Shown here in pieces: positions 36,911-58,221 of a stretch of DNA of 64,000 nt. The DNA is from an uncultured virus (IMG/VR IMGVR_UViG_3300030376_005322). Taxonomy: Duplodnaviria; Heunggongvirae; Uroviricota; Caudoviricetes. The translations under genes and the position numbers were made by a program. A model generated the notes under the pieces. It was not told the origin of the DNA. It did no database searches and saw nothing but the letters and a program-made list of their open reading frames with translations. How positions within the stretch are numbered: the first letter of the stretch is position 1; each line of letters opens with the position of its first letter. The stretch lies in the IMG/VR virus record IMGVR_UViG_3300030376_005322; one strand, 5' to 3'.

Positions 36911-37170
36911 AGAGCGCCTTCTAACCAGACGTTCAAAAACTCTTCCATCGAGTAATAAGCGGAGCCTTCCATATCTTTGACCCAAGCAACCCATTCGTCG
37001 TCTTGCCGAACAATTATTGCCGCCCATTCCCCATAACTATCGTTGGCGTATAAGTACCAACCAGTTTGAAGACCTTCATCAGGATGAGGGGTGACAGTAT
37101 AAAGATCAGGATGTGCTTCAGCGTGCTGTAAAACCTTCACGACAGGAATTGGTGTTATCAACATGACCAA
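36907..37170 (-). CDS. hypothetical protein
   Basis: 87-aa ORF overlapping neighbours. Confidence 0.55.
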   Translation of the reverse strand: MVMLITPIPVVKVLQHAEAHPDLYTVTPHPDEGLQTGWYLYANDSYGEWAAIIVRQDDEWVAWVKDMEGSAYYSMEEFLNVWLEGAL

Positions 37171-37568
37171 GTACCTGACCTTCCAGTCACATACTCATTT
37201 GCTGGAACTCTTTTTTGGAAATCAGAAAACTCAACAAGGACAGTGTTGTCTTCAAAGCATTCAACAACAAAGCCGGGAGATTTTTTAGTTCCCTTTGCTT
37301 GCTTTAGTTGAACCCAAACGTTAGTGCCCGGTTTAAGTATTCTTTGACCTTCTCTACGTATCTCACCAGAGAAGACTTCTCTTTCCGGTGTTTCGATAAT
37401 TGTAGTTTGGCTACTCATAGGAAACTCTTTAATAAAGAAGGGGAACTTGAGTCGCTCCAGTTCTTTTTTATCGAACATCTGTTGCCATTGTCGAACACCT
37501 ACTCCCGAGTTAATCTCGGTCCAGTGCTTCTTGTTCTTTAAGTCGTATTCTTCTGTGAAGTCTTTCAC
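37158..37568 (-). CDS. hypothetical protein
   Basis: 136-aa ORF, divergent from the DUF1599-like gene. Confidence 0.55.
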   Translation of the reverse strand: MKDFTEEYDLKNKKHWTEINSGVGVRQWQQMFDKKELERLKFPFFIKEFPMSSQTTIIETPEREVFSGEIRREGQRILKPGTNVWVQLKQAKGTKKSPGFVVECFEDNTVLVEFSDFQKRVPANEYVTGRSGTWSC

Positions 37569-37658
37569 GTGTCATGTCTTTCATCTAGTCAACTATCTAT
37601 TGTATCTTCTTTTAAGAGGGTTCACAACCTCCACCTTGAAAGCCCCTATGCTTCAAGT

Positions 37659-38189
37659 ATGGCTAAACCACAAGTTTGGGAAGACGGAGCAACAATCGTC
37701 GGCATGTCATACTTCGACCTGTGGAACGACGAAGACGCCCTCAACTTTCCTGATGAGCACGCCGCTCTAGATTTCATAGAGCAACAAATCTACGAACTAA
37801 GAGAATTGTATTTCACCGCTGGACAACCCCAGCCTGACCATGCAGACGAGACTGCTGTGAGCCACTTGTTCGCAAATATTGGAGCAGCGGCTTTTGATGC
37901 TTACGTCATAGCCGGGAAAATACTTCCATCAGAAGCGATGAAACATATTCTCCTAACCATCACCAGCAAGCAGTCAATGTATGGACACAACAATATTGCA
38001 GGCTTTGGTATACCCGGAATTATTATTCGTTGCTGGGATAAAGTTCAGCGACTACACAACCTTGAGAACCATAACGGCCCAGTTTTATTTGAACCAGAAT
38101 TAGATTCTTGGCTAGATATAACCGGCTACGCAATCATCGCAATGATGTGGATTAACGATTGGTTTATGTTGGACTTGTCTAAGAACTAG
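37659..38189 (+). CDS. DUF1599/nucleotide-modification-associated domain protein
   Basis: 'KQ..YG..NI..FG..G..IR..DK..RL.NL...DS.LDI.GYAII'; leaderless TATGCT-6nt-ATG at 37659. Confidence 0.7.
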   Translation: MAKPQVWEDGATIVGMSYFDLWNDEDALNFPDEHAALDFIEQQIYELRELYFTAGQPQPDHADETAVSHLFANIGAAAFDAYVIAGKILPSEAMKHILLTITSKQSMYGHNNIAGFGIPGIIIRCWDKVQRLHNLENHNGPVLFEPELDSWLDITGYAIIAMMWINDWFMLDLSKN

Positions 38190-38728: not shown

Positions 38729-39028
38729 TTATACCCGCCCTAGTAGTCTATCAGTTGGCACAAGCGTTCGCGCTTGTTTAGGCAAATATGTGACAAGCCC
38801 TGCTTCGACAAGGCGTTCTATGTCAGCCCGGACTGTCCCGAGAGAAGAAACGCAAGTCTCTGATTGAATCTCTCTCAACGTAGGGCCGAACTTATTTGCT
38901 TCCCAGTAGTCGGCTATAAAGGTTGCGACTCTGGAAAGACGCTCCCCTGTTATTACCGCACGCTGAGTTTTAGGTTCTGCTTGTGGAGGTTCCTGAACTG
39001 AACCAAAGGTGTAACTAAATGTAGACAT
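38729..39028 (-). CDS. LexA-like DNA-binding domain protein (no peptidase domain)
   Basis: 'FI.DY....FGPTLREI......S.GTV...I.RL...G.V.....ARTL' matches the LexA N-terminal winged HTH pattern. Confidence 0.75.
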   Translation of the reverse strand: MSTFSYTFGSVQEPPQAEPKTQRAVITGERLSRVATFIADYWEANKFGPTLREIQSETCVSSLGTVRADIERLVEAGLVTYLPKQARTLVPTDRLLGRV

Positions 39029-42977: not shown

Positions 42978-43382
42978 ATGTCAGATACTGGTGATTCTAA
43001 AAGAGTTGAAGTTTACAGGAACCTTAACTTCGGGTGTTTTAGTGTGCGTGCCCTAGGAGGGAAACACAAAGGACTCGTTATCGACCATGTAATTCAAATC
43101 ACGCTAGAAAACGCGTCGTTTGTTGTTCAGCCTGCAGGGAACCGTCGAGTCAAAGCCGAGAAAAGAAAAAACGTTCACGCTTTCGTCCGGGGTGAGAAAA
43201 GTGGAGGAGGGCAAATAACCAACCCTCTAACCATCGCCTACGACCCATACCAAAACGATTCGTTTGTAATTACAGGACCCGAAGGACACCCACGTGTAGG
43301 GGAACAAATAAAAGAAGCCCCCTACGTAAGAATGGTGTTCACCCTAGAAGGAAATTCCCTTATCCAAATACAAGACCTATAA
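42978..43382 (+). CDS. conserved phage hypothetical protein
   Basis: 'VYRNL....FSV....G.VI.H.......F.V..AG..RV..EKRKNVHAFVRG...YDPY'. Confidence 0.7.
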   Translation: MSDTGDSKRVEVYRNLNFGCFSVRALGGKHKGLVIDHVIQITLENASFVVQPAGNRRVKAEKRKNVHAFVRGEKSGGGQITNPLTIAYDPYQNDSFVITGPEGHPRVGEQIKEAPYVRMVFTLEGNSLIQIQDL

Positions 43383-44618: not shown

Positions 44619-44861
44619 TTGTTTCTTCTTCCTGTTGCTAAGAGTTTCTCAGCGACAAGGTATTCCTACCAGCATTAGCAACGACCATCAACTCGGGATT
44701 GACCTAACGACCTAAAAAACCCGACTTTGGCCCCTGTTTATATAGAAAAAAAATTTCTGGATTTCTTCTTTTTTAGCCTCTAAAAACACCTAAAAACTAT
44801 TTCTAAAGTCGCCGCGTGCAGCAAATGAGCGCGAGAGAAACCGCGCTATTTCTCAAGATCA

Positions 44862-44923
44862 GAGACCGAGACCGAGACCAACCGAGACCGAGACCGAGAC
44901 CGAGCGCGAGCGCGTGAGCGCGC
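44862..44923 (+). repeat. tandem GAGACC hexamers followed by GAGCGC repeats
   Basis: GAGACC x3, short interruption, GAGACC x3, then GAGCGCGAGCGCGTGAGCGCGC. Confidence 0.85.
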
Positions 44924-44926
44924 TAA

Positions 44927-45009
44927 GTTACCGAGCAGTAACAAATTGAGGGAGTTAGTGAAACAATTCACAATGTTAAGCGTGCCTAACATAGTGAAAC
45001 GTTTCACAA
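44927..45009. promoter_or_regulatory. cluster of palindromic operators (GTTAC-N6-GTAAC, two Rex-like, one IdeR-like)
   Basis: GTTACCGAGCAGTAAC; AGTGAAACAATTCACAA; TGTTAAGCGTGCCTAACA; AGTGAAACGTTTCACAA. Confidence 0.6.
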
Positions 45010-45357
45010 TGTATTTTGAGCGTCGAGACGCCTCCCGGGATGCAGCGTTTCAGATGCAGCGGCGCGTGAATTTTCAAGTGTCAATCTGGGATGCAGCCCT
45101 CGATTAAAATTCAAGTGTGAATGTGGCCCGGCAGGGCCCGGTGCATACACGCAGGTGTGAATCTCAGGCGTGAATCTTGGGAGGTCGAAGTCTAATGAAT
45201 GTTGAATGTCGATGCGGGGCCCGGTGTTCCGGCCTCCGGTCAGCCTTCTCCTATCCGTATATATATACTATACCAGACCTGAGAAAAAAAAGCAACCCCT
45301 AAATAAAAAAAAATAAAAAAAAATCGGGCCACCGTAGCGACCCGATTTTTTAATTCC

Positions 45358-45609
45358 TCAGACGAGGGCGATCCACCGGTGATACCAGCGGTTCGTATCC
45401 CAGCGGATACTTCCCACCTCGATCATCAGCACGAGGGCCTCACGGAAGTCCTTCTCGCTGAAGTGACGGAGAGGGTGAGATTCGATCTCATACTCCACTT
45501 CTGCTCTCAGGTCCTCCGTTGGGAGATCGAAGTCGTCGCCTTGTTCGATCTGCCTCGCACGACAGGTGTTGAGTATATGGAACTCATAATTCTTATGAGT
45601 GGTTCTCAT
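45358..45609 (-). CDS. hypothetical protein (cassette array)
   Basis: AAGGAGGT RBS, own promoter (GAGGTTG...TATTAT), terminator 45320-45351. Confidence 0.7.
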   Translation of the reverse strand: MRTTHKNYEFHILNTCRARQIEQGDDFDLPTEDLRAEVEYEIESHPLRHFSEKDFREALVLMIEVGSIRWDTNRWYHRWIALV

Positions 45610-45778
45610 GTTCTACCTCCTTAGTAGCACCCTTTAATAATACCTTGACATGAAAGAAACAACAACCTCGAAAGCAATATTTCTTAAATAAATATTTCTG
45701 AAATAATTTAGTTTTGAGGTTGGTGTTGGCGTGTGCACAAAGTACAATAGATAAGGTAAACAACTACGAAAGGAAACC

Positions 45779-45943
45779 ATGCCAGACTTCAACCACACCG
45801 AGGAAGAACTTCAACTCTTCACTCATGAGGAACTTGTTGAGATAATTCTCTTCAACCAAATGATTCGACTTAGGAGAAGAAGGAATGAGGAAGACCTTCA
45901 CACTCGGATCAGAGACCTAACCAATCTGCTACTCGCAGACTGA
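45779..45943 (+). CDS. 54-aa protein (not in ORF track)
   Basis: MPDFNHTEEELQLFTHEELVEII...; GAAAGG RBS, GAGGTTG-20nt-TACAAT promoter, hairpin at 45950-45980. Confidence 0.7.
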   Translation: MPDFNHTEEELQLFTHEELVEIILFNQMIRLRRRRNEEDLHTRIRDLTNLLLAD

Positions 45944-46049
45944 TCAAACCGGGAAGGGGGGCGAAAGTCCCCCAACCCGATGATGCGGGGCCTCCGGTCC
46001 TCCGGGCCAGTACGCGCAAATGTGGGGGCTCTCACCCCCACGCTCAACT

Positions 46050-46193
46050 TTAGAAAGTTCCGTTCACCATGTCTTCGATGTTCTTGGCAACCTTACTTTT
46101 GTTACGGCGTCGGTCTGCCTTGTTGTTTACTTTGCGCTCTGCTTTGGTAATCCAGTAGTTCGCTCGGTTGGTGTTGTTTGTTCCTGCTTGCAT
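46050..46193 (-). CDS. 47-aa basic protein (not in ORF track)
   Basis: MQAGTNNTNRANYWITKAERK...; AAAGGAAG RBS, own promoter and hairpin. Confidence 0.65.
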   Translation of the reverse strand: MQAGTNNTNRANYWITKAERKVNNKADRRRNKSKVAKNIEDMVNGTF

Positions 46194-46365
46194 TGTTTCT
46201 TCCTTTGCTATTTGGTTATATATTAACTATACACTCTTAATTGACTAATACCAACCTCTAAATAAATAAATATTAAATAAATAATTAGTAAGAAATCTTT
46301 GTTTTGAGGTTGCGGTTAGTGTGGGTATAGAGTATAATGGTTATATACCAATAAGGAGGTGAGCA

Positions 46366-46653
46366 ATGAAACAGCAAGACTTAAGCGATCACGGTTTAGT
46401 TGAGACAGTCACAATGTCTGGAGACCTTAAACAGAATCCAGCGGCGACAGTCCACAGGATCGTAACCGCTTGGCAAGCCAGCGAGCGAGTAATGTTTGAA
46501 GAGAAATTCTATTATGTGTTCTCTTACAACCGTTACGACACCGATGGCGAGACCTTCACCAGAAGGCAAAAATTGTCAAGACGGTTTACATCCTTAGGCG
46601 AGTGTAAAGAATCCCTCAGTGAAGAGTTCGAGGAATTCAAGCCACTATTCTAA
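46366..46653 (+). CDS. hypothetical protein (cassette array)
   Basis: TAAGGAGGTG RBS, GAGGTTG-20nt-TATAAT promoter, hairpin 46661-46688. Confidence 0.75.
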   Translation: MKQQDLSDHGLVETVTMSGDLKQNPAATVHRIVTAWQASERVMFEEKFYYVFSYNRYDTDGETFTRRQKLSRRFTSLGECKESLSEEFEEFKPLF

Positions 46654-46796
46654 ACGGTGAAGGTTGGGAGGTGAAAGCCTTCCAACCTGAATCCGTGCGG
46701 GGCCTCCGGTCCTCCGGCCGGGTACGCGCAAATATGGGGGGCCTTAACGCTTCACCCTCCCCCCCAAGCGGTTGGGGGGAAGGTGTTGCTATCGCG

Positions 46797-47060
46797 TTAT
46801 ACTATGTCGGTTTTTTTCCAACCGGTAGGGACTGATGATATTTTGAAATATCCTGTCGCCTTGTTTGTGATTGGGTTAAAAGCAAAACCCATTCCGCTCG
46901 AAATGACTGCGATCATATCGCCACCGTTATAAGTGAAGATGTCAGCCTTTCCTTCATTTTTCAAGAAGGCGATTCGCCATTTCCAGTTTTCCGCTTTCAT
47001 GTTGCAAGGGTTGTAGAGTCTTTCGACTGCTTCTTCCCCTGTTAGTGTTTCGTAGAGCAT
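46797..47060 (-). CDS. hypothetical protein (cassette array)
   Basis: AAAGGAGG RBS, promoter and hairpin. Confidence 0.7.
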   Translation of the reverse strand: MLYETLTGEEAVERLYNPCNMKAENWKWRIAFLKNEGKADIFTYNGGDMIAVISSGMGFAFNPITNKATGYFKISSVPTGWKKTDIV

Positions 47061-47180
47061 GTGCTCCTCCTTTGTTGTATATATTAACTATACACTAATA
47101 CCCAACATTTAGCAACCCCAAACTAAAATTATTTCAGAAATCTTTTAATCCAGATGCGGGGCGAGAAGGCGCGAGGACAC

Positions 47181-47194
47181 CGAACGTATGTTCG
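47181..47194. promoter_or_regulatory. SOS (LexA) box, Gram-positive type
   Basis: CGAACGTATGTTCG is an exact CGAAC-N4-GTTCG. Confidence 0.7.
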
Positions 47195-47267
47195 ATGCGG
47201 GGCCTCCGGTCCTCCGGCCGGGGGGCGCGAGAATTGGAGGGCTCTCGCCCTCCGCATCTCGTAAGCG

Positions 47268-47519
47268 CTATTTCTTCACTCTCGCTTGACCAGCGAACCG
47301 AGAGAGAACCTCTGCCTTCTTCGCTATCTCTCGGTCTTTGCGTATCGCTATGGCGTGAAGAGTTTTAATGTCTCGTTCTGCCTTTGCGAGGTCTAACCCT
47401 GATTGGATTAGTTCTTCCTTGAGAGAGTCGATCTCTTTGTAGAGGTCACCTCTTTCTTGAAGTGCTAAAAACGTTATGAGAACAAATCCCACTAACGCTA
47501 CTATTGTTAATGCTAACAT
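47268..47519 (-). CDS. membrane-anchored coiled-coil protein
   Basis: N-terminal TM followed by heptad pattern; GAAAGG RBS. Confidence 0.7.
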   Translation of the reverse strand: MLALTIVALVGFVLITFLALQERGDLYKEIDSLKEELIQSGLDLAKAERDIKTLHAIAIRKDREIAKKAEVLSRFAGQARVKK

Positions 47520-47653
47520 TTGATTTCCTTTCGTAGTTGCTTACCCTTTAATAATACCTTCATTTCAACTAGATACCAACCTCAAAACAAAGAAATCTTA
47601 GAAATATTTTAAGCCGGATGCGGGGGCTACCGAAGTGCGGGGGGCGTTGAGGT

Positions 47654-47687
47654 TTGTGAAAACTTTCACTAATCGAACAGACGTTCG
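47654..47687. promoter_or_regulatory. adjacent Rex-like and LexA boxes
   Basis: TTGTGAAAACTTTCACT then CGAACAGACGTTCG. Confidence 0.65.
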
Positions 47688-47814
47688 GTGCGGGGCTCCC
47701 GGTCCTCCGGCCGGGTTCGCGGGAATTTGGGGGGGATATCTTCCCCCCCTTTCATTTATTCCCTTCTCTGGTTTGGGGGATTCTGTTGCCACGCTCCCCC
47801 GAGCGCCGAGTCCA

Positions 47815-48228
47815 TCAGTCTTCTAAGACACCTAGTTCAAGCCCTGAACCGTCGCTATCTCCGATATTCTGAAGATAGTCAAGCGGATCAGTCGCACACC
47901 AGACCGTTGCCGCTCGTGGTACGTCTTTTGTACCGGTAGCGATACCGTCTCTATCAGCCTTGCGTATCCAAGAGATAATGTAAGTATCTGGTTTGGATAG
48001 TTTCGCAACATTGATAGCGATGTGGTTTGCAGGGTTCTTAGGGTTACCAGTGATAGCAACTACAGTCCTTTTATGTTGGACTGCTCGAAGTTTCGCAACT
48101 TCGGCGCGTTGTGTACCTTTGACGGCATCGCCTAAGAACTTCAACCAACTACTTCGCCGACCTGTCGGCCCCATAGGGCGACCTGTCTTTTTGTTGTTGG
48201 TGTTGTGTCCCACGCTAACAAGTTTCAA
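47815..48228 (-). CDS. hypothetical basic protein (cassette array)
   Basis: AAAGGAGGTG RBS before TTG start; own promoter. Confidence 0.7.
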   Translation of the reverse strand: MKLVSVGHNTNNKKTGRPMGPTGRRSSWLKFLGDAVKGTQRAEVAKLRAVQHKRTVVAITGNPKNPANHIAINVAKLSKPDTYIISWIRKADRDGIATGTKDVPRAATVWCATDPLDYLQNIGDSDGSGLELGVLED

Positions 48229-48343
48229 TTTTTCACCTCCTTTATTTGCTTACCCTATTTATTCTAGGCCGCTCACAGCCAATACCAACCTCAAAACTAA
48301 TAAATCTTAGAAATATCTAAGAAATATTTATGCCCTAAATAGG

Positions 48344-48412
48344 GGTACAGGTGTTCGATTAGTGAGCACTTAGTGAAACAATTCACAAACTACTTAGTGA
48401 AACATTTCACAA
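48344..48412. promoter_or_regulatory. degenerate LexA box plus two Rex-like boxes
   Basis: GGTACAGGTGTTCG; AGTGAAACAATTCACAA; AGTGAAACATTTCACAA. Confidence 0.6.
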
Positions 48413-48703
48413 AGTCAGATTTTGCGGGGGCGGGGGACCTCCGGTCTCCCGGGCTACATCGCGTGTGTGAATTTCGTGTGTGAATTTGGCTTCCGGTGCC
48501 TATACGCAGGTGTGAATTTGGGCTCCCGGCTTTCATCGATCCACTTCATAGGTGTGAATCTTGGCCCGGAGGGCCCCGGTGCCTATACGCAGGTGTGAAT
48601 TTTGACCTCGAACTTCTCCCCCCAACCACCTCTCTGGTTGGGGGAGTTTCTGTTGCCACGCTTTGCTATTAGTGCGCCGAGTCTGAGTCAGTAGTCCAAC
48701 GAA

Positions 48704-48928
48704 TTAAATTACGTTTGCATGAGGTCGGGGATCACTAATGATGATCGGTTTTACCGTTCCTCGTTCGTAATCTTCCAACGCCTCCGTCATTCCGCAATCG
48801 CTGCAAATCCAGATTCGTTGCTCGGTGTTCCGAGTCAAACGACTTAAGGCATTTGTTTCGATCGGGGAACGTAATTCGGTTACGTCACATTTAGGACAAA
48901 TTGCTGTTTCCACTTTCACCTCCTCCAT
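48704..48928 (-). CDS. small zinc-ribbon protein
   Basis: CPKC...ALSR......ICSDCG..EA; true start possibly GTG after GGAGG. Confidence 0.65.
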   Translation of the reverse strand: MEEVKVETAICPKCDVTELRSPIETNALSRLTRNTEQRIWICSDCGMTEALEDYERGTVKPIIISDPRPHANVI

Positions 48929-49267
48929 TTGCTTACCCTTTAAGCGTACACTGTTGATTGACTAATCACAAGTGACATGTGTCACACCAAGTCCTCCGGT
49001 TGAGAGTAATAAGAATGTTGGCGGCCGGGTCTCCCGGTCCTTCCGGGGCAAGACGCACTTTTCCCTATGTATATATAATAGCAAATTTTCAACCAAATAG
49101 CAACCCCAAATTAAAATTATTTCAGAAATATTTTATTTTAAGATTTCTAAGATTTCTTTATTTTGAGGTTGGTATATATGCCAAAAAAAGATACTATTAA
49201 AGGAGTGGAGGTGCTGAATAAAAACCACCATGTTAAGCAACCCTAACAAACTTAAAAGGAGTTTGAT

Positions 49268-49705
49268 ATGAAAGTAATAACGATAGAACATAGAAAGATT
49301 AAAGACGGAGTGCCCTACACACTCCTACAACAACAACTAAGTTGGTTCCGTTCACTCGGTAACTACGCCAAAGGTTGTGGTTGGAAAGTTGAACAACCAG
49401 CCTCTGTTGATCGTGCCGCTACTAATTGGATCGCAAATGGAACTTACGCCATAGCGAACTTTACAGTAACGCCACCAGTCAAAGGTTGGTTCCGTTTGAA
49501 TTGGGTACGCCCAAAGACACGGAAGAACAACTACTCCGACACTCAAGCGAAGCAAGAAATTGTTCGCACTGTAAAACTCAAAGTTTTACAAATTGACGGA
49601 GTAGACGCCACCGGAGTATCGGCACAAGACGTGACCGACTACCTCCGAGGCTTGACCACTCACAATTCCATCACCATAGGAATTGACGAACAAAAAAATT
49701 GGTAG
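49268..49705 (+). CDS. hypothetical protein (cassette array)
   Basis: AAAGGAG RBS, GAGGTTG-20nt-TACTAT promoter, GAAA-loop hairpin 49728-49747. Confidence 0.75.
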   Translation: MKVITIEHRKIKDGVPYTLLQQQLSWFRSLGNYAKGCGWKVEQPASVDRAATNWIANGTYAIANFTVTPPVKGWFRLNWVRPKTRKNNYSDTQAKQEIVRTVKLKVLQIDGVDATGVSAQDVTDYLRGLTTHNSITIGIDEQKNW

Positions 49706-49855
49706 GAGTTCAGCACCTCCAGCCCGACGCCTCCCGAAAGGGAGGCGAAAGGCCTCCGGTCTTCCGGGCTGCAGCGCGTGTGTGAATCTTGCGTGTGAAT
49801 TCCTCCGGTGTTCCACGATCCACTTGATAGGTGTGAATTTTGGCTTCCGGCTTGG

Positions 49856-49930
49856 TGGTGACCCTAGAGAGAATTGAACTCTCGTTTCCAACTTGAAAGG
49901 CTAGCGTATTATCCACTATACGATAGGGCC
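49856..49930 (-). tRNA. tRNA-Glu (TTC), CCA encoded
   Basis: GGCCCTA acceptor stem, D arm, anticodon loop CT-TTC-AA, T arm GAGAG-TTCAATT-CTCTC, 3' ACCA. Confidence 0.9.
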
Positions 49931-49988
49931 GTGTATGTGTTCCGGGTAGGGCGAAACTATCGGGGAGGGCCGAAACCCTCCCCAAATG

Positions 49989-50246
49989 TTAAACTGCTTC
50001 GGGCAGGTAGTCCGACCCGATAGCCGCGATCCGAGTGTCAGCAAAACGTTTCGCGTTGTGCTCGGCTGGGTGAGTTTCACCTTCTTCAAGGATAGGGAAC
50101 TCGTACCCGCGTGGGTCTAAACCGGTAACAGTTGTATAAATCCTGTTTCCGTTCTCATCAAGGAATGAGTAGGCGCAGGTGGTACGGTTTCTGCGATGTC
50201 TCGCTGATTCCGCCTCCGTTCTGCGTGGTGTGTTTAATCTGGTCAT
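49989..50246 (-). CDS. hypothetical protein (cassette array)
   Basis: Own promoter; hairpin GGGAGGGCCGAAACCCTCCC downstream. Confidence 0.65.
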   Translation of the reverse strand: MTRLNTPRRTEAESARHRRNRTTCAYSFLDENGNRIYTTVTGLDPRGYEFPILEEGETHPAEHNAKRFADTRIAAIGSDYLPEAV

Positions 50247-50531
50247 TTTGGCTCTTTCTGGTTAGTGGTGAAGCCGATTGCCTCACCCTTTCAATATAAC
50301 TCCATATTGAACAAATACCAACCTCTAAATAAATAAATCTTAGAAATCTTTTTGCCTAAAAATCTGCGCCTCCCGGTCATACCCATAATAGATAGCACCA
50401 GCAGCGCCCGGTCCTTCCGGGCAGAGAAATATGTCATCGGAGGAGGGTAACCACTCCCCCCTCCGGTGACATCGGGTTGACTGGATCGGAGGGAAAAGGA
50501 GTAAACCTCCGGCCCGAGTCTTTATATCTTT

Positions 50532-50753
50532 TTAGAGATCAACTTTTGGTTTCCCTCCATAGCCTCCGGCGGCGAGCATGAACTTTGCATAGTCAAATCG
50601 TGGATTATCTGCCGCGAAATGATCTGCCCATTGCTCACAGGTTTCCCGGTGCGCCTTTTTGTCGGTTACGGTCTTAGTGCTTCTGCTGAGCACTCCGGCC
50701 ATGTCCCTATAGTGTTTTCTTGTGTATAGCATTTTTGCCTCTTTCTTTGTCAT
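50532..50753 (-). CDS. conserved small phage protein
   Basis: 'TRKHY...A......FAADNPRFD..KF..A' pattern; leaderless start. Confidence 0.7.
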   Translation of the reverse strand: MTKKEAKMLYTRKHYRDMAGVLSRSTKTVTDKKAHRETCEQWADHFAADNPRFDYAKFMLAAGGYGGKPKVDL

Positions 50754-50970
50754 ATTTTAAGTATACCTTGAATTGACCTAGTTCCACTGTGACATCTGTC
50801 ACACCGCCCCCGGTCTGCTCTATATGTAAATGTGGAAAATCCCCCGGTACTCCCGGTTGCAAGTTCATGTGTGAATCTGCGTGTGAATATGGGTGTGTAG
50901 GTGTGAATGCCGCTCCCGGTCTTCCGGGCTGGCAAGCGTGAATTGGGGAGGGCCGAAACCCTCCCCGACT

Positions 50971-51270
50971 CTACGATTGTTTACCGTCAGTACTCTCGCG
51001 GGTCCACGGTTGGCTACTTAGGAGTGCTCTCCACTCCACGAAGAGTAATCCGAAGCCTTGAATTTTGCATTCAAGAGCGACAAGCCAGAGACGATCGAAG
51101 TATTTACTAACCGACCATTTAGGTGGATGTAAAACTACCGTGTCGTCATGTCCACTGAAAATAATATGGATGATTTGCTCTTTTTTGGTTTGTGGGAGGT
51201 AGTCGGCCGAGTGGACCCAGCAACGACGTAATCCGTTATTTTTGATTAGGTATTTCTTGGTTTCTTTCAT
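50971..51270 (-). CDS. hypothetical protein (cassette array)
   Basis: Leaderless TACCAT-6nt-ATG; same terminator hairpin as at 49962. Confidence 0.65.
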   Translation of the reverse strand: MKETKKYLIKNNGLRRCWVHSADYLPQTKKEQIIHIIFSGHDDTVVLHPPKWSVSKYFDRLWLVALECKIQGFGLLFVEWRALLSSQPWTRESTDGKQS

Positions 51271-51559
51271 ACTTTAATGGTACACCGTAAATTGACCTTT
51301 CCACTGTGACATCCGTCACATCGCCACAGCCTGCGCCAGCCTGCGCCAGCCTGCGCCTCCCGGGCATATATGCGCCTCCCGGGCATACGGTAGACAGCGC
51401 CCGGTCCCCCGGGTGCAGCCGTGTGAATTTGCGACCGTGTGAATTTGCAGTCGTGTGAATTTAACCACGTGTAAATTTAATACGATTTCTTTGTTTTGAG
51501 GTTGGTATTCACTGTGCAAGGCTTATAATGGATAAGAGAAACAACTACAGGAGAAACAA

Positions 51560-51841
51560 ATGAAATTTGATCCAACAGCAAAAATAGTAAAGAAAGCCAA
51601 AAGAGGCAAAGACAAGTTCACTCTTACCGAGTGCAAAGGTTACAATCTTTTTAACCTCTGGCTAATGGTTCCAGCCCCAAGCGCGGCAGAGCGTCAAGCA
51701 TGGGAAGATCAAGGCATCGCTGACATCATGGAAGATTGCTCAGGCCCTCAATTCTGCGGTCACGTTAACGATCCAGACAATATTGAGATGGCGATAGACG
51801 CCCACCTTGAGGAAATGCATTTTCTCATGCAAGGCATCTAA
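51560..51841 (+). CDS. hypothetical protein (cassette array)
   Basis: AGGAG RBS; GAGGTTG-20nt-TATAAT promoter. Confidence 0.7.
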   Translation: MKFDPTAKIVKKAKRGKDKFTLTECKGYNLFNLWLMVPAPSAAERQAWEDQGIADIMEDCSGPQFCGHVNDPDNIEMAIDAHLEEMHFLMQGI

Positions 51842-51989
51842 GGGCGGAGGGGTCATTTGACCCCAAACCCCCCCCGGTACTCCCGGTCACCCGGGCAGAG
51901 AAATGCCCCCCGAACGTGGAAACTTCGTCCGGGGGGCTGGGGTTAGCAGAGACAAGGAGAAAATGAAAGAAAACTCCTTGCCCCGGCTT

Positions 51990-52430
51990 CTATGATCCGT
52001 ACAGAACGTAACTTTTATCTAATGCTACCGGACTGTAACGTGCGTCTACTTGCGCTTGCTGATCTAACCATTCCACGCAAGACCAATACCATTGTTCTGC
52101 CGTCATGCTTTCGCTATGAGTGACACAATCAAAGTTCACCATCTCACGACTCATGCCCTCCGGGTTCATGGTTGATGCCATGCGCCAGATGTTCGTAATG
52201 TGGTAATCGGTTTCTATGTTGTCCGCTGCCGTGAATATAAAAATTACGTCACCGCGTAAAATAACGGAGTTGTAGGTATCTGCGTGGACCTTCCCGGGTT
52301 CATCTGTGTGGGTTGTCCATTCGTCTACGATTGTTTGCATGTTTGCTTTTGCTTCTGCCTCTTGGCGTTGCAGTTCGTCAAACTCTCGCTGTTCGTCTGT
52401 TGGGTCTACTTCTGACCATTCGTCATTCAT
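51990..52430 (-). CDS. hypothetical acidic protein
   Basis: AAGGAG RBS, own promoter. Confidence 0.7.
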   Translation of the reverse strand: MNDEWSEVDPTDEQREFDELQRQEAEAKANMQTIVDEWTTHTDEPGKVHADTYNSVILRGDVIFIFTAADNIETDYHITNIWRMASTMNPEGMSREMVNFDCVTHSESMTAEQWYWSCVEWLDQQAQVDARYSPVALDKSYVLYGS

Positions 52431-52755
52431 TTTTGGCTCCTTGCCGTTTTGTTTACCTTATCTATTGTAAAGGTTTAATTGACTAATACCAACCTCTCCA
52501 GTTAATTATTTTTTCCAGTTTCTTTCTTTAGTTGGTTTACAGATTTTTTGACAGATGCAAAAAAACTCGTTCCGGTTGCAGTTGCATTTACTTTTATATT
52601 GCCTACATGGGCATAGTGTCGTGTCGTTCATTTGTCCTCCGGGGCTTCATACATCTCTGGAGGGATAATTTGCTTTATCTCGTCCTCCGGGAGACCGTTC
52701 GCTCTTAGGTATGTCATTAAATCCGAGAAGGTGCTCCCGGGCTGTACTTTTCCAG

Positions 52756-52971
52756 TCATCGCAATATCCTTTGTGCTTGTGCGTATTCTCGGTCTCGTCT
52801 TGCTATCTGCGTGATTTCTTCTCTCGCTTCTTTAAGAGAACCCACCATAAAGTGCCCGATGGTGTCGGTGCCGTCCGGGGTTAGTTCCCATACGGTGATA
52901 TCGCCATCTTCTTCTACTTGTATTTGGTGACCTTTATAGTCAATGATCCGGGCTGTTAATTTTCCGCTCAT
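52756..52971 (-). CDS. hypothetical protein
   Basis: ATGA-coupled small gene. Confidence 0.6.
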   Translation of the reverse strand: MSGKLTARIIDYKGHQIQVEEDGDITVWELTPDGTDTIGHFMVGSLKEAREEITQIARRDREYAQAQRILR

Positions 52972-53111
52972 TTGTTTCCTCTCACATGTACGACGCTAAT
53001 TCCCATGCTTCCCATGATTCGGTCGAACTCTTGCATTGGCGAGTCGCAGTATTTCCCTTCGTTTCCTCCGGGGTGCTTCTCTTTACATTTCTTGCAATAG
53101 GTATCGCTCAT
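52968..53111 (-). CDS. small Cys protein
   Basis: Start moved to ATG 53111 after AGGAAG. Confidence 0.55.
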   Translation of the reverse strand: MSDTYCKKCKEKHPGGNEGKYCDSPMQEFDRIMGSMGISVVHVRGNK

Positions 53112-53348
53112 TTTTTCTTCTTCCTGTTTGCTTCCTGTATCCATTGTACAACTTTTAATTGACTTTCCACTGTGACATGTGTCACATCGCTTCCGGGCGG
53201 GGTTACCAGTTCCCTTTCCGACAAGCCTTCCGGTTGCCGTCTTTCTTACGGTCGGCAAAATACACCGATCTGGTCTTCCGGCCGTCACGTAGGGCGGAGA
53301 GGTGCTCCTCCCTATGTAGCCTGCGAATGTTTTTACTGTCCTCCGGGT

Positions 53349-53630
53349 TCATGATGCTTCCCAGTTGGTTGATAATTGGTTGTGCAAGAATTGGGCCTGC
53401 AAGTCCGCCTCTAGTTTCTTCCGGGCGATTGTTGCCGCACGTTTTTTATTGGCGTTTAATTTTTTGTAGTAAGGAGTTACGTCGTCAATAACTCGCTCAC
53501 CGTAAAAGATTTCCCGGGCGACTGGCATATCTCCGCAGTCCCTGATTTCTTGGGCTTTTTCTTCTAGTTCGTATTCGTCTACGATTTCAGAAGTGCCCTC
53601 ATTATAAGCAACTAATAAAAATTCTCTCAT
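53349..53630 (-). CDS. hypothetical protein
   Basis: GGAGG RBS, own promoter. Confidence 0.65.
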   Translation of the reverse strand: MREFLLVAYNEGTSEIVDEYELEEKAQEIRDCGDMPVAREIFYGERVIDDVTPYYKKLNANKKRAATIARKKLEADLQAQFLHNQLSTNWEAS

Positions 53631-53876
53631 TTTGTTTCTCCTCCGGGGGGTTTCCCCCTGTTGTTATTTCCTTGTTAATTTAAGTATACCAGAAATTGAC
53701 CTAATTGCAATGTGACATTTGTCACCCTTCCTGTTCCTTTAATGTCCAGCCACAATCCGGGCAAACATCATCTTCTATGACCTGCTCACCACAAGCGTCA
53801 CAGTTCCAAACCAACCCGGGCCCATGATTGCTCACGTCGTATTCGGGTGCTCCGGTCCAAGGGTTATGCCACATGC

Positions 53877-54164
53877 TCATTTTTTTCTCCTATGTAAATT
53901 GTTTGTAACGCAGTCCGGGTCTTGGCACTTTGGCAGGGGACCGTAAGGGTGGTTGTCTGGGCAGGCAGCGCAAACGTAGGTAGTGATAAGGAAGCCGAGT
54001 TCCGGGTCTGCTATTGATTCCCTTTCGTAGGCGTTTAAGTTCCTAACGATTTCTTCGGCTTCTTCCTTGCTCCGGGCTTCAACTTCTATGTCGCCATAGT
54101 TCAGGGCGTAAACGCCTACTGTGAAGGTCCGGGTTATTCCTGTGGTTTCGTTGTTTTCTTTCAT
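53877..54164 (-). CDS. DpnD/PcfM-like small protein
   Basis: 'IEVEARSKEEAEEIV' motif; leaderless start. Confidence 0.6.
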   Translation of the reverse strand: MKENNETTGITRTFTVGVYALNYGDIEVEARSKEEAEEIVRNLNAYERESIADPELGFLITTYVCAACPDNHPYGPLPKCQDPDCVTNNLHRRKK

Positions 54165-54308
54165 ACTTTAAGGGTACACGCTTAATTGACGTTTCCACCG
54201 TGACATGTGTCACACGGCCTCCGGGCCACCCGGGTTCGAGAAAGCCACCATGCCTCCCGGGTTACCCATATAACCCGAAAAGCACGTGTGAATTTTCACG
54301 TGTGAATC

Positions 54309-55220
54309 TTACGTGTGAATCTCGGACAGTTCCGGCGACGGTATTTCGTCTGCCGCTTCGGTAATGAACTTGAGCGCCTTACTCGCTTTACTAGCCGCGT
54401 CCCAAACAAACTTATGATCTCCGTTTAAGGCTTTAAGCCAACTAGCGATGTAAGAACCATGATCCTTCCGGGGACTGGTTGCTACTCCGTGATGATTGGA
54501 TAAGAATACGGCACCTAATTCAGCGACTAATTCTTCAAAAGCATATCCGGTACGCTCTCCGTTATTTTCTGCTTTACGATTAAGTCGTGAAGATGCTCCG
54601 GTCCAATGTGTGAACTCATGGGCAACCACTCCGAACCATTCAGCAGTACCTTCAAACTGTACGTCCTCCGGCGTGTTGATGTAGTCACCTGATGGACTGT
54701 AAAACGCTCTATCGCTAGGAGTTTCACGCCAGTCAGCACCGATTGACTTAAACCACTTCCGGTAGACCTCTACGTCTATGTCTGGTGATGGTTCTGGTTG
54801 TTCCCACTTTGGAGCGTTCTCTACTTGTGATGCATGAAAGACACTATAAGAGCGTGCCATCATACGAGATTGAGATGCTCCCGGGTGAGCCTTACATTCG
54901 TTCTTGGACCATTTTCCGCATGTCTCACATACGAAACTTCTGCCCCAATAAATGATTGGTGTTCCGGTTTCGCCCTTCTTGACATTGCCGCCTAATTTCG
55001 CCCAGCCTTTATAGGTGGACCAACGCGGATCAGCAGGATCAGGAGATAGGAACATGAGAACCATGTAATTGCCTCCGGTGTAGATAGTTCCCGATTGTGG
55101 ATTATGTGGCATACGCCCAGCACCTTGCCAAGGCTTAGTCCAATCCTCCGGGTTGTTCTCTAATTGGCGGATAATTGCTTCTGTTAATTGTTTTTGGATT
55201 ACTTCAGTTTTTTCACTCAT
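54309..55220 (-). CDS. ardC: ArdC-like antirestriction ssDNA-binding protein with zincin domain
   Basis: W.KPW, P.N..SG..Y.G.N, W.TY..W..LG..VKKGE.G, VF..SQV, AFYSP..DYI..P, HEFTHWTG...RL.R, YAFEELVAELGA, YIASWL. Confidence 0.9.
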   Translation of the reverse strand: MSEKTEVIQKQLTEAIIRQLENNPEDWTKPWQGAGRMPHNPQSGTIYTGGNYMVLMFLSPDPADPRWSTYKGWAKLGGNVKKGETGTPIIYWGRSFVCETCGKWSKNECKAHPGASQSRMMARSYSVFHASQVENAPKWEQPEPSPDIDVEVYRKWFKSIGADWRETPSDRAFYSPSGDYINTPEDVQFEGTAEWFGVVAHEFTHWTGASSRLNRKAENNGERTGYAFEELVAELGAVFLSNHHGVATSPRKDHGSYIASWLKALNGDHKFVWDAASKASKALKFITEAADEIPSPELSEIHT

Positions 55221-55394
55221 GTATATAAGGATAAAGGGTAAATCTGGGAATTACTCCACAATGTGACAGAAGTCACAAAATTAAAAAAGTAGCGGCATCC
55301 GGTACACCCGGCACCCGGGCGCACTGCAAGGAAGAAGCAGCGCCCGGGTTGCATGGGGTGGATAAATCTTGCGTGTGAATCTCATGTGTGAATT

Positions 55395-55742
55395 TCATGC
55401 GTTTAACCAGACTGTCGGAGGAGCAGTATCTTCCCACATATCGTCATACCTGCACCAATAACAGACGCCATCTTGCGTGAACATCGTTATCCCATAATGG
55501 GTATCGCAGTTATAGCAAGCGTCGTAATCTTTATCACCTGCCGCCGCTTTCTCTTTAGCAATATCGCTGTCACGGTGTTCCGGTAACACGAAAGGGACAA
55601 TCACTACCTTCAAAGGAGTGCCGTTCATGTCGCGAGGGATATCTTTATCTGTTACACAGTTTGGGCAAACAAAGTAGTCGTGGGCGACATAAGTCTCCAT
55701 GTCCATGTCTATAAGAACATCACATCTTGAGCATTCGCTCAT
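55395..55742 (-). CDS. Cys-rich protein
   Basis: Four CxxC pairs; start ATG 55742. Confidence 0.6.
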   Translation of the reverse strand: MSECSRCDVLIDMDMETYVAHDYFVCPNCVTDKDIPRDMNGTPLKVVIVPFVLPEHRDSDIAKEKAAAGDKDYDACYNCDTHYGITMFTQDGVCYWCRYDDMWEDTAPPTVWLNA

Positions 55743-56197
55743 ATTATCTCTACTTCTTTTACACCGTATTGGCTTAGAGTGCCTACCCTTGAACGTCCGG
55801 CGTACTCGCATTTAGCAGAGGAGTCGTGCTCCCAGAACATGCCATTGTCGTCGCCTTTTTCGTGCGCCCAACCCCGAGAAACAAAATCTCGTGCTATCTC
55901 TAAAACCTTCCGTTCAATGTAAGCCTCATCAACATGACGTGCAGACAAATCCCGGTCTGGGTCTACCCACTGGTCATAGGCGAGCCAGCCGTGATCTAGG
56001 GTGACCTCTTTCTCTACGAGAACCCTGACCTTTATGGACTTATCCCGAGCAACAAAATCTTCAACGAATTCGTTGAACAGTTTCTGTTTGTAGCATTCAT
56101 CGTGATAGACCGTTGAGTATTCTGCGTGAACTCCGCCAGAAGTTATCTCTGGGTCATCGGTAAAGTCTGAACAATTTTCGTAATCGCAAACCAACAT
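55739..56197 (-). CDS. hypothetical protein
   Basis: 152 aa, operon member. Confidence 0.6.
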   Translation of the reverse strand: MLVCDYENCSDFTDDPEITSGGVHAEYSTVYHDECYKQKLFNEFVEDFVARDKSIKVRVLVEKEVTLDHGWLAYDQWVDPDRDLSARHVDEAYIERKVLEIARDFVSRGWAHEKGDDNGMFWEHDSSAKCEYAGRSRVGTLSQYGVKEVEII

Positions 56198-56199
56198 GA

Positions 56200-56355
56200 C
56201 TATCCTTCCTCTACGCTAACAAGTTCGCCTAGTTCCATTTCTTGTGCTATATCCCAAGCACTGTCCGGTGTCTCCGCCTCAATACAAACTGATTGAGTGC
56301 CCCATTGCCAGACATTAAAAAACTCAACTTTATATTTATTCAGTGTGTCCGGCAT
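56200..56355 (-). CDS. DpnD/PcfM-like small protein (not in ORF track)
   Basis: MPDTLNKYKVEFF...VCIEAETPDSAWDIA... Confidence 0.55.
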   Translation of the reverse strand: MPDTLNKYKVEFFNVWQWGTQSVCIEAETPDSAWDIAQEMELGELVSVEEG

Positions 56356-56357
56356 GA

Positions 56358-56615
56358 TTATTCCTCATCATCTTCGTCGTCGTCATCTGAATAACCGTCG
56401 CCATCATATTCCCAACCTGTATACATGTCGGTAACCATGCTTGGTTCTGGGAAGCCGTGTTCAACTGCTTCCGTAATTTCAAATGAGTTCCATTCCGCAT
56501 CAGTCAGAGCCCTAGCCTCTGAAACTTTCTGCGATGCTTCCTCTGGGCTGTCTGCGTCTATTTCAAATATGCCGCTGACGGTCCATTCTGTAACTTCTAC
56601 TCTGTAACTTCCCAC
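56358..56615 (-). CDS. DpnD/PcfM-like acidic protein
   Basis: 'YRVEV....FEIDADSPEEA.QKV'. Confidence 0.65.
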   Translation of the reverse strand: MGSYRVEVTEWTVSGIFEIDADSPEEASQKVSEARALTDAEWNSFEITEAVEHGFPEPSMVTDMYTGWEYDGDGYSDDDDEDDEE

Positions 56616-56672
56616 TGTATTCTTCTTCCTGTATTGTTTGTTATATCTAATTGTAAAGGTTTAATTGACTAA

Positions 56673-57155
56673 TCACAACGTGTCATCGGTCACATCGCCT
56701 CCGGCAACGCTTTCTTCTAAGTTGCGTAAATAAGTTCTGATCTTGTATATGTCGTGGCGATGCCATGCCGCCGAAACATGTATTTGTTGTTGGTTCCCCA
56801 ATTTTTCCATTTCGTCATACGGCAATTCTGCCAACCAATCCAAGAACTCTATGGTCCGGGTGAGGTCATTATCTTTGCGGTCTACTTTTTCCTCGCGGAC
56901 TTCCGGCATAGGTTTTAGAGAGAAGAGTATTTCATCGTCGCCGTCTTTTTCCCAATCACCGTTTTCGCTAACGATCATGTAAACATCAACATGTTTATTC
57001 TCGCTCCGGGCCTTATAGACTTTGTAGGCCTCACGGATTGCAGTATCCGAGAAAGCATAAGAGCGTTGAAACTCGCCATCTACCCACATTGTGTACCTAT
57101 GATCTCCGGTCGAATGAGGTGGCTTATGTTCTCTGTAGTCTTTCCAACTAGTCAT
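56673..57155 (-). CDS. hypothetical protein
   Basis: AAGGAAG RBS. Confidence 0.65.
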   Translation of the reverse strand: MTSWKDYREHKPPHSTGDHRYTMWVDGEFQRSYAFSDTAIREAYKVYKARSENKHVDVYMIVSENGDWEKDGDDEILFSLKPMPEVREEKVDRKDNDLTRTIEFLDWLAELPYDEMEKLGNQQQIHVSAAWHRHDIYKIRTYLRNLEESVAGGDVTDDTL

Positions 57156-57757
57156 TGCTTTCTTCTTCCTTAATAGAGAAATGGCTCATGATATTGTCAA
57201 ATGCTTCGAGCAAGTTTTTAGCGTGGGCCATCTCTGGGTTTTCGGTATTTTCTGTTTCTTTATCCATACCTTTCAGGATAAGGGGTAAATCTGGGAATTA
57301 CTCATTATTCCTTGAATTGTTTTGTGACCCATGTCACACGCCCTCCGGTCAATAGAATGACAGCGGGCTCCCGGTTACCCGGGCTTGCAGTAACTTAATG
57401 CAGCAAGCGTGTGAATCTTGCGTGTGAATCATTGTAAAGATTTCAACACGTTAATTTCAGACTGCCAATCATCTCCGTACTGCTCATTCTCTTCTAAGAA
57501 GTTTATGATCGTAGCCAGCACCCGGCTGTTGTATTGTTTATCTGTTTCTTGATAAGTCATGGCTTCCTTATATCTTCTCTAGGATCGCGGCGACCTTTTT
57601 TAAGGTCTCTAAATCCATATTGTTAATAGCATCTTCGTTGATGAGTTTTGGGCTCCTCCACATGTCTGCTAATTCTTCTGATGGGTCTTTCTCTGTGTTT
57701 GTCATATATTTAATGATAGAGGGTAAATCTGGGAATTACTCTATAATGTGACAGGAG

Positions 57758-58075
57758 TCACACATTTATTACCCTTAAGTGCATTCTCCCATCGTTAGTG
57801 ATCTGCCCGGTAGGCAAAGCCTCTACCCGAACAACTTCCGCTCTAGGGAAATATTTATCCCGATAAGTCTCAGCCGCCTTCCGGTAACGCCAGACCGAAG
57901 CCGTAGCCATATCCGGGCTGGCATAGAACCGTTCGTGGACGCTGTAATATCTTCCGGTATGTAGTGGTAGGTCCGAGTCGCGTAACGCATACATTGAGTG
58001 GACAGACTTCTTGTTCCACCCGTGAATCATCTCTATAGGGCCGCGCAGAACATACCCGGTTGGGTGCTTGCTCAT
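57758..58075 (-). CDS. hypothetical protein
   Basis: GGAGG RBS. Confidence 0.6.
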   Translation of the reverse strand: MSKHPTGYVLRGPIEMIHGWNKKSVHSMYALRDSDLPLHTGRYYSVHERFYASPDMATASVWRYRKAAETYRDKYFPRAEVVRVEALPTGQITNDGRMHLRVINV

Positions 58076-58077
58076 AT

Positions 58078-58221
58078 TTAAGCCTCCTCAACATATACTT
58101 CTTGAAGTTTCCCCATCGGGACTATTTCAGCATCGTTATATGCTTGCTCAGGGTCTCCGGCTTCGATGGTGTATACCATTTGTCCGTATTCGTGTACAAA
58201 TGAAACGTTGTATAAGGTCAT
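58078..58221 (-). CDS. DpnD/PcfM-like small protein
   Basis: 'YNVSF......YTIEAGDPEQAY'; start ATG 58221. Confidence 0.55.
   Translation of the reverse strand: MTLYNVSFVHEYGQMVYTIEAGDPEQAYNDAEIVPMGKLQEVYVEEA

Follow-up and report, generated by a model that had tools for sequence, protein, structure and literature searches.

The 64-kb window analysed here (i.e., the whole stretch of 64,000 nucleotides of the uncultured virus IMGVR_UViG_3300030376_005322, a member of the Caudoviricetes) carries, in the non-coding spacers between small genes, a set of short palindromes which match the operators of host regulons and fall into four kinds, namely a LexA type, a Rex type, an IdeR/DtxR type and a type found upstream of beta-oxidation genes (fatty-acid type hereafter). 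The sites exist and they are kept in kind across distant phages. When both readings that assume a host binder are taken together, it is likely that the sites are operators of host repressors, and the phage probably uses them to read host regulators or to soak these up. Tentatively, and at a probability somewhat short of even, the palindromes are understood here as operators of four host repressors, which were kept by the phage lineage and most of which act by sequestration; both the binding by host proteins and the sponge effect are what we infer from the DNA sequence.

Operator-type palindromes of the window

Motif counts in the 64-kb window were compared with 100 shuffles per motif. The Rex-type core GTGAA-N4-TTCAC was found in six exact copies (37555, 44958, 44994, 47656, 48373 and 48397; shuffle mean 0.06, 0/100 shuffles reaching six) and ranks in the top four by frequency when all 5+5 palindromes of the window are counted; the five copies described in the initial annotation were all recovered, with starts displaced by one to two bases, while the sixth at 37555 had been missed. 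The LexA-type core CGAAC-N4-GTTCG is present exactly at both positions claimed for it (47181 and 47674) and once more at 32271, within the portal gene (three copies; shuffle mean 0.06, 0/100 reaching three), and the two IdeR-type copies of TGTTAAG-N4-CCTAACA (44974 and 49231) are likewise in place (shuffle mean 0.01). Shuffling places three of the four motif kinds far above expectation, the exceptions being the fourth kind, GTTAC-N6-GTAAC, and a degenerate LexA-type copy. The single copy of the former exists at 44927 as first described, yet is not significant alone (4/100 shuffles hold one) and is credible only because the relative G001 (see below) has six copies. The latter, claimed at 48344, did not withstand the comparison, as matches to CGAAC-N4-GTTCG with two mismatches or fewer number 24 versus 23.9 expected, which is chance level. 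Ten sites of the window are considered supported; they are given below, followed by the sixth GTGAA-N4-TTCAC copy and the degenerate LexA-type copy.

44927-44942: fatty-acid-type site GTTACCGAGCAGTAAC, exact copy, in the context AAGTTACC-N4-AGTAACA
44958-44971 (core): Rex-type box TAGTGAAACAATTCACAA, one mismatch to TTGTGAA-N4-TTCACAA
44974-44991: IdeR/DtxR single-dimer-type box TGTTAAGCGTGCCTAACA, the identical 18-mer being present in reverse complement in G001
44994-45007: Rex-type box TAGTGAAACGTTTCACAA
47181-47194: LexA-type box CGAACGTATGTTCG, placed after the hairpin 3' of gene 47268-47519, centre ~72 nt upstream of the -35 of a minus-strand promoter at 47115
47656-47669: Rex-type box TTGTGAAAACTTTCACTA, ~84 nt upstream of the -35 at 47579
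47674-47687: LexA-type box CGAACAGACGTTCG, 4 bp from the Rex-type box at 47656, centre ~101 nt upstream of the next -35
48373-48386: Rex-type box, again TAGTGAAACAATTCACAA, ~92 nt upstream of the -35 at 48288
48397-48410: Rex-type box TAGTGAAACATTTCACAA, 10 bp from the Rex-type box at 48373
49231-49248 (+): IdeR/DtxR-type box TGTTAAGCAACCCTAACA, between the -10 (ending at 49197) and the ribosome-binding site (RBS)/ATG (49268) of the 145-aa gene 49268-49705
37555-37568: sixth GTGAA-N4-TTCAC copy, at the junction of the divergent open reading frames (ORFs) 37158-37568 (-) and 37569-38189 (+); may be a real operator
48344-48357: claimed degenerate LexA-type copy GGTACAGGTGTTCG, two mismatches, unsupported on its own

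The region in question (~44.7-52.5 kb) consists of very small genes lined up on both strands, each with its own conserved promoter, here termed P1, which reads (A/G)(A/G)GGTTGnnn, 16-18 nt, TAnnnT and is preceded by an A/T-rich stretch. G+C-rich hairpins are found 3' of each small gene and the palindromes sit in the spacers between these units, which agrees with the initial annotation. A PHROGs family was assigned to one of 22 ORFs scanned (43.5-54.2 kb), the function of that family being unknown, and a Pfam search of 20 ORFs of the small-gene region yielded matches for four only, all of them weak sub-threshold ones to zinc-ribbon and DpnD families. P1 was mapped by regular expression (13 copies between 45.2 and 52.5 kb); transcription starts are deduced from the sequence and the site-to-promoter distances rest on this map, one entry of which is of particular relevance:

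45267-45299 (-): predicted P1-type promoter GGGGTTGCTT-17-TATAGT

A transcript from this predicted promoter would run left across the 44927-45009 cluster to gene 44618-44355. The four sites of the cluster nearly abut (gaps of 2-15 bp), as had been noticed before, and are located ~250-330 nt downstream of this P1 copy and ~310 nt upstream of gene 44618. The LexA- and Rex-type sites between 47181 and 48410 lie past the hairpins of the preceding unit; from their centres it is 72-116 nt down to the -35 of the minus-strand P1 that comes next. The 49231 site lies at ~+27 to +44 relative to the P1 copy at 49165-49197, immediately ahead of the RBS that serves gene 49268-49705, and is the only one in classical operator position, the other nine of the ten being away from core promoters; both the general placement off promoters and this single exception had been stated correctly.

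As for the sequence of the sites, the LexA-type core CGAAC-N4-GTTCG agrees with the core of the actinobacterial LexA box, the extended consensus of which is TCGAAC...GTTCGA. The Rex operator consensus is given as TTGTGAAW4TTCACAA in PMC2883068, and all five Rex-type sites share 13 of the 14 specified bases of TTGTGAA-N4-TTCACAA, whereby one half reads TTGTGAA and the other always TAGTGAA; the earlier assignment of both cores is thus borne out. For IdeR, PMC8464063 gives the consensus TTAGGTTAGSCTAACCTAA, with one CCTAA repeat bound per subunit. According to this source, a dimer occupies the first and the third repeat, and half sites that accommodate just one dimer are also bound. Taken together, these two repeats yield TTAGG-N4-SCTAA, i.e., what the initial annotation had named the core. 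At 44976 and 49233 the window has TTAAG-N4-CCTAA, in which one pentamer is exact and the other differs by one base; with only two of its four pentamers, these sites are not the classical 19-bp two-dimer box. In each phage IdeR-type site only one half is the consensus TGTTAGG, the other being TGTTAAG or TGTTAGC, with symmetric sites found in 0/23 cases in G001 and 0/2 in the window versus 15/20 in a host family (61 genomes, see below). The fatty-acid-type site of the window, AGTTACCGAGCAGTAACA, departs in its last base from AGTTACC-N4-(G/A)GTAACT, which the six G001 sites fit. The asymmetric halves of the IdeR- and Rex-type sites may reflect a tuned affinity or the preference of the phage's own host.

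Recurrence in other viral contigs

No close relative was found in the phage collection (megablast, 44700-49300). Searching viral contigs for the Rex-like 18-mer yielded 11 loci, one of which (L007) led to the 128-kb relative G001; two others (L003, L006) were rejected as relatives, each having only one ORF family in common with the window, and the remaining eight hold one to three copies of the core each. G001, the capsid protein of which is 50% identical to that of the window and which encodes two WhiB proteins, carries all four motif kinds, which rank with the most frequent 5+5 palindromes when the entire contig is counted. Only one copy, a TGAAA-N2-TTTCA match at 67389, lies outside 39.8-54.6 kb. 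TGTTA-N8-TAACA, with 23 copies often arrayed at a 23-bp period, is the top palindrome of G001, followed by six copies each of GTGAA-N4-TTCAC, of AAGTTAC-N6-GTAACTT and of CGAAC-N4-GTTCG, the latter with three further tandem copies that have a GTTCC end. The LexA-type boxes of G001 stand in tandem at a 15-17 bp period (spacing 16, 17 and 15 bp). The 44974 site of the window recurs in G001 as a perfect reverse complement. Copy numbers exceed those of the window and the sites form back-to-back arrays, including two composite clusters, the first of which packs four LexA-type sites, two IdeR-type sites and a Rex-type one into 125 bp, and the second a fatty-acid-type site followed by five IdeR-type sites into 135 bp. 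A distant blastn search with a G001 cluster against the phage database gave no match.

The 106-kb contig G002 was found to hold six LexA-type boxes, four copies of TGTTA-N8-TAACA (three of IdeR form) and one GTTAC-N6-GTAAC that overlaps one of those, so that conservation in related phages, which had been proposed as a check, extends to all four kinds in G001 and to three in G002. No Rex-type box was seen in G002-G006 and G009-G011, and four tandem ones occur in each of G007 and G008; the motif kinds are thus distributed independently among the relatives. Tandem boxes of the TGTTAGG/TGTTAAC type were identified in eight further viral contigs, in three of which (L024, L030, L036) they are intergenic beside whiB, in L030 and L036 in a divergent region. 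The 86-kb Gordonia phage DalanDe gave the best capsid match to the window (49% identity at most, other Gordonia and Brevibacterium phages reaching 45-47%, and the portal comparison agrees) but was rejected as a relative, being a myovirus without the motifs; used as control, it contains none of the five motifs. TGTTAGG was also considered as a parS, dif, CtsR or DnaA site, and spacing or half sites do not fit any of these.

Three side observations concern these genomes. In G002 a further word, AGTGTGATACACT, is present ten times in forward or reverse-complement form, at 1087 and within 94429-106266, the same region as its LexA-type boxes; the word was not seen in the window. G001 encodes a ferredoxin, an Fe-S assembly protein, two PhyH proteins, one 2OG-Fe(II) oxygenase, a thioredoxin, an AhpC/TSA protein and the two WhiB proteins (loci L015-L021), and these iron- or redox-linked proteins coexist with 23 IdeR-type boxes. 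Hexanucleotide microsatellites adjoin operator clusters in both phages, i.e., (GAGACC)n at 44863-44905 of the window and (GATCCA)n and (CAGGTC)n in G001 (locus L007, ~4115-4210 and 2205-2225).

The motifs in actinobacterial genomes

An actinobacterial host, as assumed in the initial annotation, is indicated because the window encodes WhiB and L5-gp82-like proteins:

24401-24679 (-): WhiB-family gene (Pfam)
42978-43379: L5-gp82-like gene (Pfam)

The WhiB gene is placed within the structural module, between head and tail genes, and not among early genes. Iron-, fatty-acid- and Rex-type words were scanned in a 201-genome sample of the phylum and in 61 genomes of one actinobacterial family (G075 family), with the reversed pattern as control. 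Within the family, the iron word TGTTARS-N4-SYTAACA occurs in 18/61 genomes (20 sites) versus 1/61 for the control; ten of the 18 loci examined adjoin genes for FTR1 iron permease, for SBP_bac_6-type or Peripla_BP_2 binding proteins or for a DtxR-family protein, and one adjoins an ABC ATPase gene. In another lineage, an IdeR-type site is found 23 bp upstream of a DtxR/IdeR-family gene (L121), and in one genome of the family two tandem sites cover the promoter of an iron-type solute-binding protein gene. Together with the IdeR contacts described in PMC8464063, this placement beside iron-uptake and DtxR-family genes upholds the assignment of TTAGG-N4-CCTAA as an IdeR/DtxR core.

The fatty-acid-type word AGTTAC-N6-GTAACT occurs in 8/61 genomes of the family (control 3/61) and in 17/201 of the phylum sample (control 7/201), many of the latter with the ACC/ACT form of the phage. 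All eight family sites are directly upstream of beta-oxidation genes (3-hydroxyacyl-CoA dehydrogenase in five cases, acyl-CoA dehydrogenase in two, thiolase in one); GTTAC-N6-GTAAC, which the initial annotation had listed as a host operator without naming its regulon, is by these neighbours the operator type of a fatty-acid beta-oxidation regulon. TGTGAA-N4-TTCACA, by word count, is found in 71/201 genomes of the phylum sample versus 3/201 for the control, and in 64/194 when seven genomes flagged as unpublished are left out, an excess that marks it as a regulatory word of the Actinobacteria. Tandem TGTTA-N8-TAACA in 185,579 species genomes gave 54 loci, none with two proper TGTTAGG-type sites; these were rejected as arrays, being mostly unrelated repeats (e.g., in Scalindua metagenome-assembled genomes), and two Actinocorallia matches represent a different local operator pair.

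Possible role of the sites

The preferred reading assumes that the binders would be LexA (SOS), Rex (NADH/NAD+), the repressor of the beta-oxidation regulon and an iron repressor of the IdeR/DtxR family that binds as one dimer, and that a lineage of large actinobacterial phages would retain their sites, single or composite, in the non-coding DNA between its small (early-type) genes. On entry and during replication, the phage DNA would load the host repressors, and this load would rise with phage copy number and lead to derepression of SOS, respiratory, iron-uptake and beta-oxidation genes. Promoter occlusion is an unlikely function, because most sites lie past a terminator and 72-116 nt upstream of the next -35 and because relatives hold arrays of four to six sites. 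The 49231 site would be the exception, serving as a true operator that renders gene 49268-49705 iron-responsive. LexA, Rex, IdeR and the fatty-acid regulator are repressors which leave DNA on a signal; this signal-released nature, arrays that exceed the need of a single promoter and the position of nine of the ten window sites off core promoters favour sequestration. As in a decoy array, the sites are clustered, multiple and away from core promoters (9/10 in the window, arrays of four to six in G001), and neither LexA-type site overlaps a promoter as it would at a damage-inducible gene (centres ~72 and ~101 nt upstream).

A number of observations weigh against this reading. There are only ten supported sites in the window, and their sequence departs from consensus: the LexA-type sites have the flanks cCGAAC..GTTCGAt and tCGAAC..GTTCGg, each agreeing with TCGAAC...GTTCGA on one side only, and the off-consensus halves of the IdeR-type sites suggest a lower affinity, which speaks against a sponge. 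GTGAA-N4-TTCAC is in addition compatible with GTGA-N6-TCAC, the pattern of the CRP family. On the host side, TGTTARS-N4-SYTAACA is barely above its control in the phylum sample (12/201 versus 8/201 genomes), seven of the 18 family loci have no iron-related Pfam neighbour, and the Rex-type box is rare (4/61 genomes) in the very family in which the iron and fatty-acid motifs are best documented. G111 is the only example that comes near a host with all four motifs, having IdeR-, Rex- and fatty-acid-type matches, for which neighbours were examined in the case of the IdeR-type match. Finally, the window encodes a 99-aa protein which could itself bind the LexA-type boxes (see below).

In a stronger and rather doubtful form of sequestration, the phage DNA as such would be a multi-repressor sponge, whereby composite LexA/Rex/IdeR/fatty-acid arrays multiply with replication and strip four repressors at once. 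The off-consensus half sites would then make the sponge effect dependent on copy number and would constitute a built-in timer.

Alternatively, the same host repressors may bind and regulate phage transcription, the sites being signal-released roadblocks or insulators between packed, often convergent units, or gating early genes by the state of the host; this is possible, with a probability clearly below even. The signals would be DNA damage, a reduced NADH pool, low iron and fatty-acid supply. The position of the 49231 site, past the -10 of gene 49268 and ahead of its RBS, favours such a role, the 44927-45009 cluster, downstream of P1 at 45299-45267 and upstream of gene 44618, could block elongation, and all other sites lie between the hairpin of one unit and the promoter of the next. 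The IdeR-type arrays beside whiB in L024, L030 and L036 point in the same direction, the divergent ones of L030 and L036 being in typical switch position, and off-consensus halves would suit graded sensing. Arrays of four to six sites far from core promoters, however, exceed what gating needs, and four different repressors in one roadblock would need several simultaneous stresses to release it. Precedents, each for a single regulator, are CtrA sites in phages (PMC9437464), LexA in GIL01 (PMC4551915) and a cyanophage phosphate-stress response (PMC10976474).

It is improbable, although less so than the structural explanation given last, that phage-encoded proteins bind and that the likeness to host operators is mimicry or coincidence, in which case the sites would serve the shut-off of the phage's own early genes or would be organising sites, much like iterons or the stoperators of cluster A mycobacteriophages. 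Candidate binders are the small ORFan products of the region, where most small genes belong to no known family, and one further protein:

38732-39028 (-): 99-aa protein with a marginal LexA_DNA_bind match (Pfam, 24.7 bits, cut-off 23.7), between the SSB and exonuclease genes

This protein matches PHROG 3502, a family without an assigned function, and has no solved relative and no counterpart in G001 or G002, even though six LexA-type boxes are present in each, and PF01726 is absent in all five records searched, these two included; it also has no similarity to a 95-aa winged-helix protein of G001. A Pfam scan of 142 of the 193 G001 ORFs revealed no LexA, Rex or DtxR family, and identified RecA, a sigma-70 factor and the two WhiB proteins as well as two ParB_N proteins, the winged-helix protein and a NikA-like protein, the last three kinds being possible binders. 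The tandem arrays with their 23-bp period resemble iterons or centromere-like sites, and proper TGTTAGG-type arrays are known from the eight further viral contigs versus 0/54 loci of the 185,579 species genomes. Against a phage-encoded binder it has to be considered that four phage proteins would be required to copy four host specificities and that each motif is independently tied to a host regulon. In L036 and L030 the arrays have no neighbouring gene of helix-turn-helix or DtxR-like type, and clustering of ORFs from ten sources found endolysin, WhiB and SSB as the only families common to seven, with no other family in more than four array-bearing contigs. A phage-encoded binder keeps its share of probability because the window is part of a genome and because G001 and G002 are incomplete (rated 87% and 79% complete, respectively).

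That the palindromes form nucleic-acid structures (hairpins of leader RNAs or of 3' ends) or serve as break points of cassette shuffling is very improbable: the region is rich in other hairpins and repeats and metagenome contigs show alternative joints, such as a form that skips 47598-49139, but the stems are 5 bp only, the sequence is conserved beyond pairing between copies and between phages with 50%-identical capsids, the joints and loose ends fall on promoter/UP repeats (47597/49140, 49129-49175) and off the palindromes, and no Rfam family covers any of them.

Further features of the window

The window is part of a tailed, siphovirus-type phage, with the genes for tape measure, tail, major capsid, protease and portal on the minus strand at 1-33 kb and a G+C content of ~45% throughout. 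No integrase or repressor was found among the scanned ORFs of the window and of G001, and Rfam detected only the tRNA and two sub-threshold matches. The commonest palindrome of the window is of a class that the initial annotation had missed, although one copy (48972) falls within the range it covered:

48972, 50789, 51306, 53172, 53712, 54200, 55263, 57324, 57748, 59387, 60719 and 61906: GTGAC-N4-GTCAC sites (12 copies, 48972-61919)

Eight of the 12 copies of (T)GTGAC-N4-GTCAC(A) fit TGTGA-N6-TCACA, and in several the centre is ~41-43 nt ahead of an ATG placed immediately after a TAnnnT -10. The palindrome resembles a CRP/GlxR-type site for class II activation of leaderless promoters and could be a fifth host-regulator word; G001 contains no copy. 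A promoter-like element, AGTAATTCCCAGATTTACCCnnTATC, is located 3' of four of the sites (55263, 57324, 57748 and 59387) and a shorter one, CAGATTTACCC, 3' of the 61906 site, with sites and elements together covering 55263-61960; the elements may represent a promoter class for a different sigma factor.

Two repeats of the window occur in plus orientation only, namely GTGTGAAT, with 39 copies, 36 of which are arranged in intergenic clusters of two to eight between 45115 and 62197 regardless of the orientation of neighbouring genes, and the 50-nt G+C-rich repeat D2 (45980, 46692, 47192, 47685 and 50902). Near-identical DNA is present in contigs of marine metagenome runs from several studies, with no RNA data set among the runs listed as carrying it. 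These contigs break or diverge at promoter/UP repeats (45763, 47573-47597 and 49129-49175), one form omits 47598-49139, and a length difference of four bases at 44877 was observed in all four runs compared with the window; the small gene cassettes appear to be exchanged by recombination between promoter repeats. None of the 22 listed differences between metagenome contigs and the window falls inside a site, a comparison which is without power because 16 of the 22 come from one contig within gene 46366-46653.

Significance and comparison with known systems

If the sensor reading holds true, the phage would read four physiological signals of its host at once. If the sponge reading holds true, DNA alone would titrate repressors, a route of takeover invisible to gene-centred annotation, and DNA repair/recombination, respiration, iron uptake and beta-oxidation would be switched on without a phage protein or an auxiliary metabolic gene. 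Independent of the phage, operator motifs are supplied for two regulons of little-studied Actinobacteria, i.e., iron (the single-dimer IdeR-type box) and beta-oxidation. In the literature searched, no report of multi-regulator operator panels, composite clusters, decoys or repressor sponges on phage DNA was found.

Titration by clustered sites is known from datA, which is chromosomal and titrates DnaA; datA is a host locus for one protein, whereas the sites described here are phage-borne and of several repressor types. Many short intergenic sites are also found as the stoperators of cluster A mycobacteriophages and as the conserved inverted repeats of phiC31, which are bound by the phage's own repressor. 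These represent one motif family each, in contrast to the four found here, each of which is tied to a host regulon and for none of which a cognate phage repressor was found among the ORFs scanned. Spo0A boxes in phi29 are host-regulator sites that time phage development. Similarly, virulent and pseudo-temperate phages of alphaproteobacteria time their development by a host global regulator via CtrA sites (PMC9437464). In both the CtrA and Spo0A cases one regulator acts at promoters or origins, whereas in the window at least four regulator types are placed back-to-back.

The tox gene of corynephages, which are temperate, has a single promoter with a single 19-bp operator that takes two dimers. 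It is placed under an operator for the host iron repressor DtxR (PMC13001254), as the gene behind the 49231 site would be. Unlike at tox, the boxes described here are 18-bp ones of single-dimer type, are arrayed in up to five to six copies, lie mostly off promoters and are mixed with other operators. For GIL01 and its gp7 protein, PMC4551915 describes binding of host LexA to SOS boxes on phage DNA, and putative LexA boxes are likewise present here. In GIL01 these boxes overlap the lysogenic promoter and control induction, whereas here they are located ~72-101 nt upstream of the -35 and in tandem in G001. Sites for single host regulators on phages are thus known (DtxR at tox, LexA in GIL01, CtrA and Spo0A), and what sets the lineage described here apart is the joint presence of putative operators for at least four unrelated host repressors.

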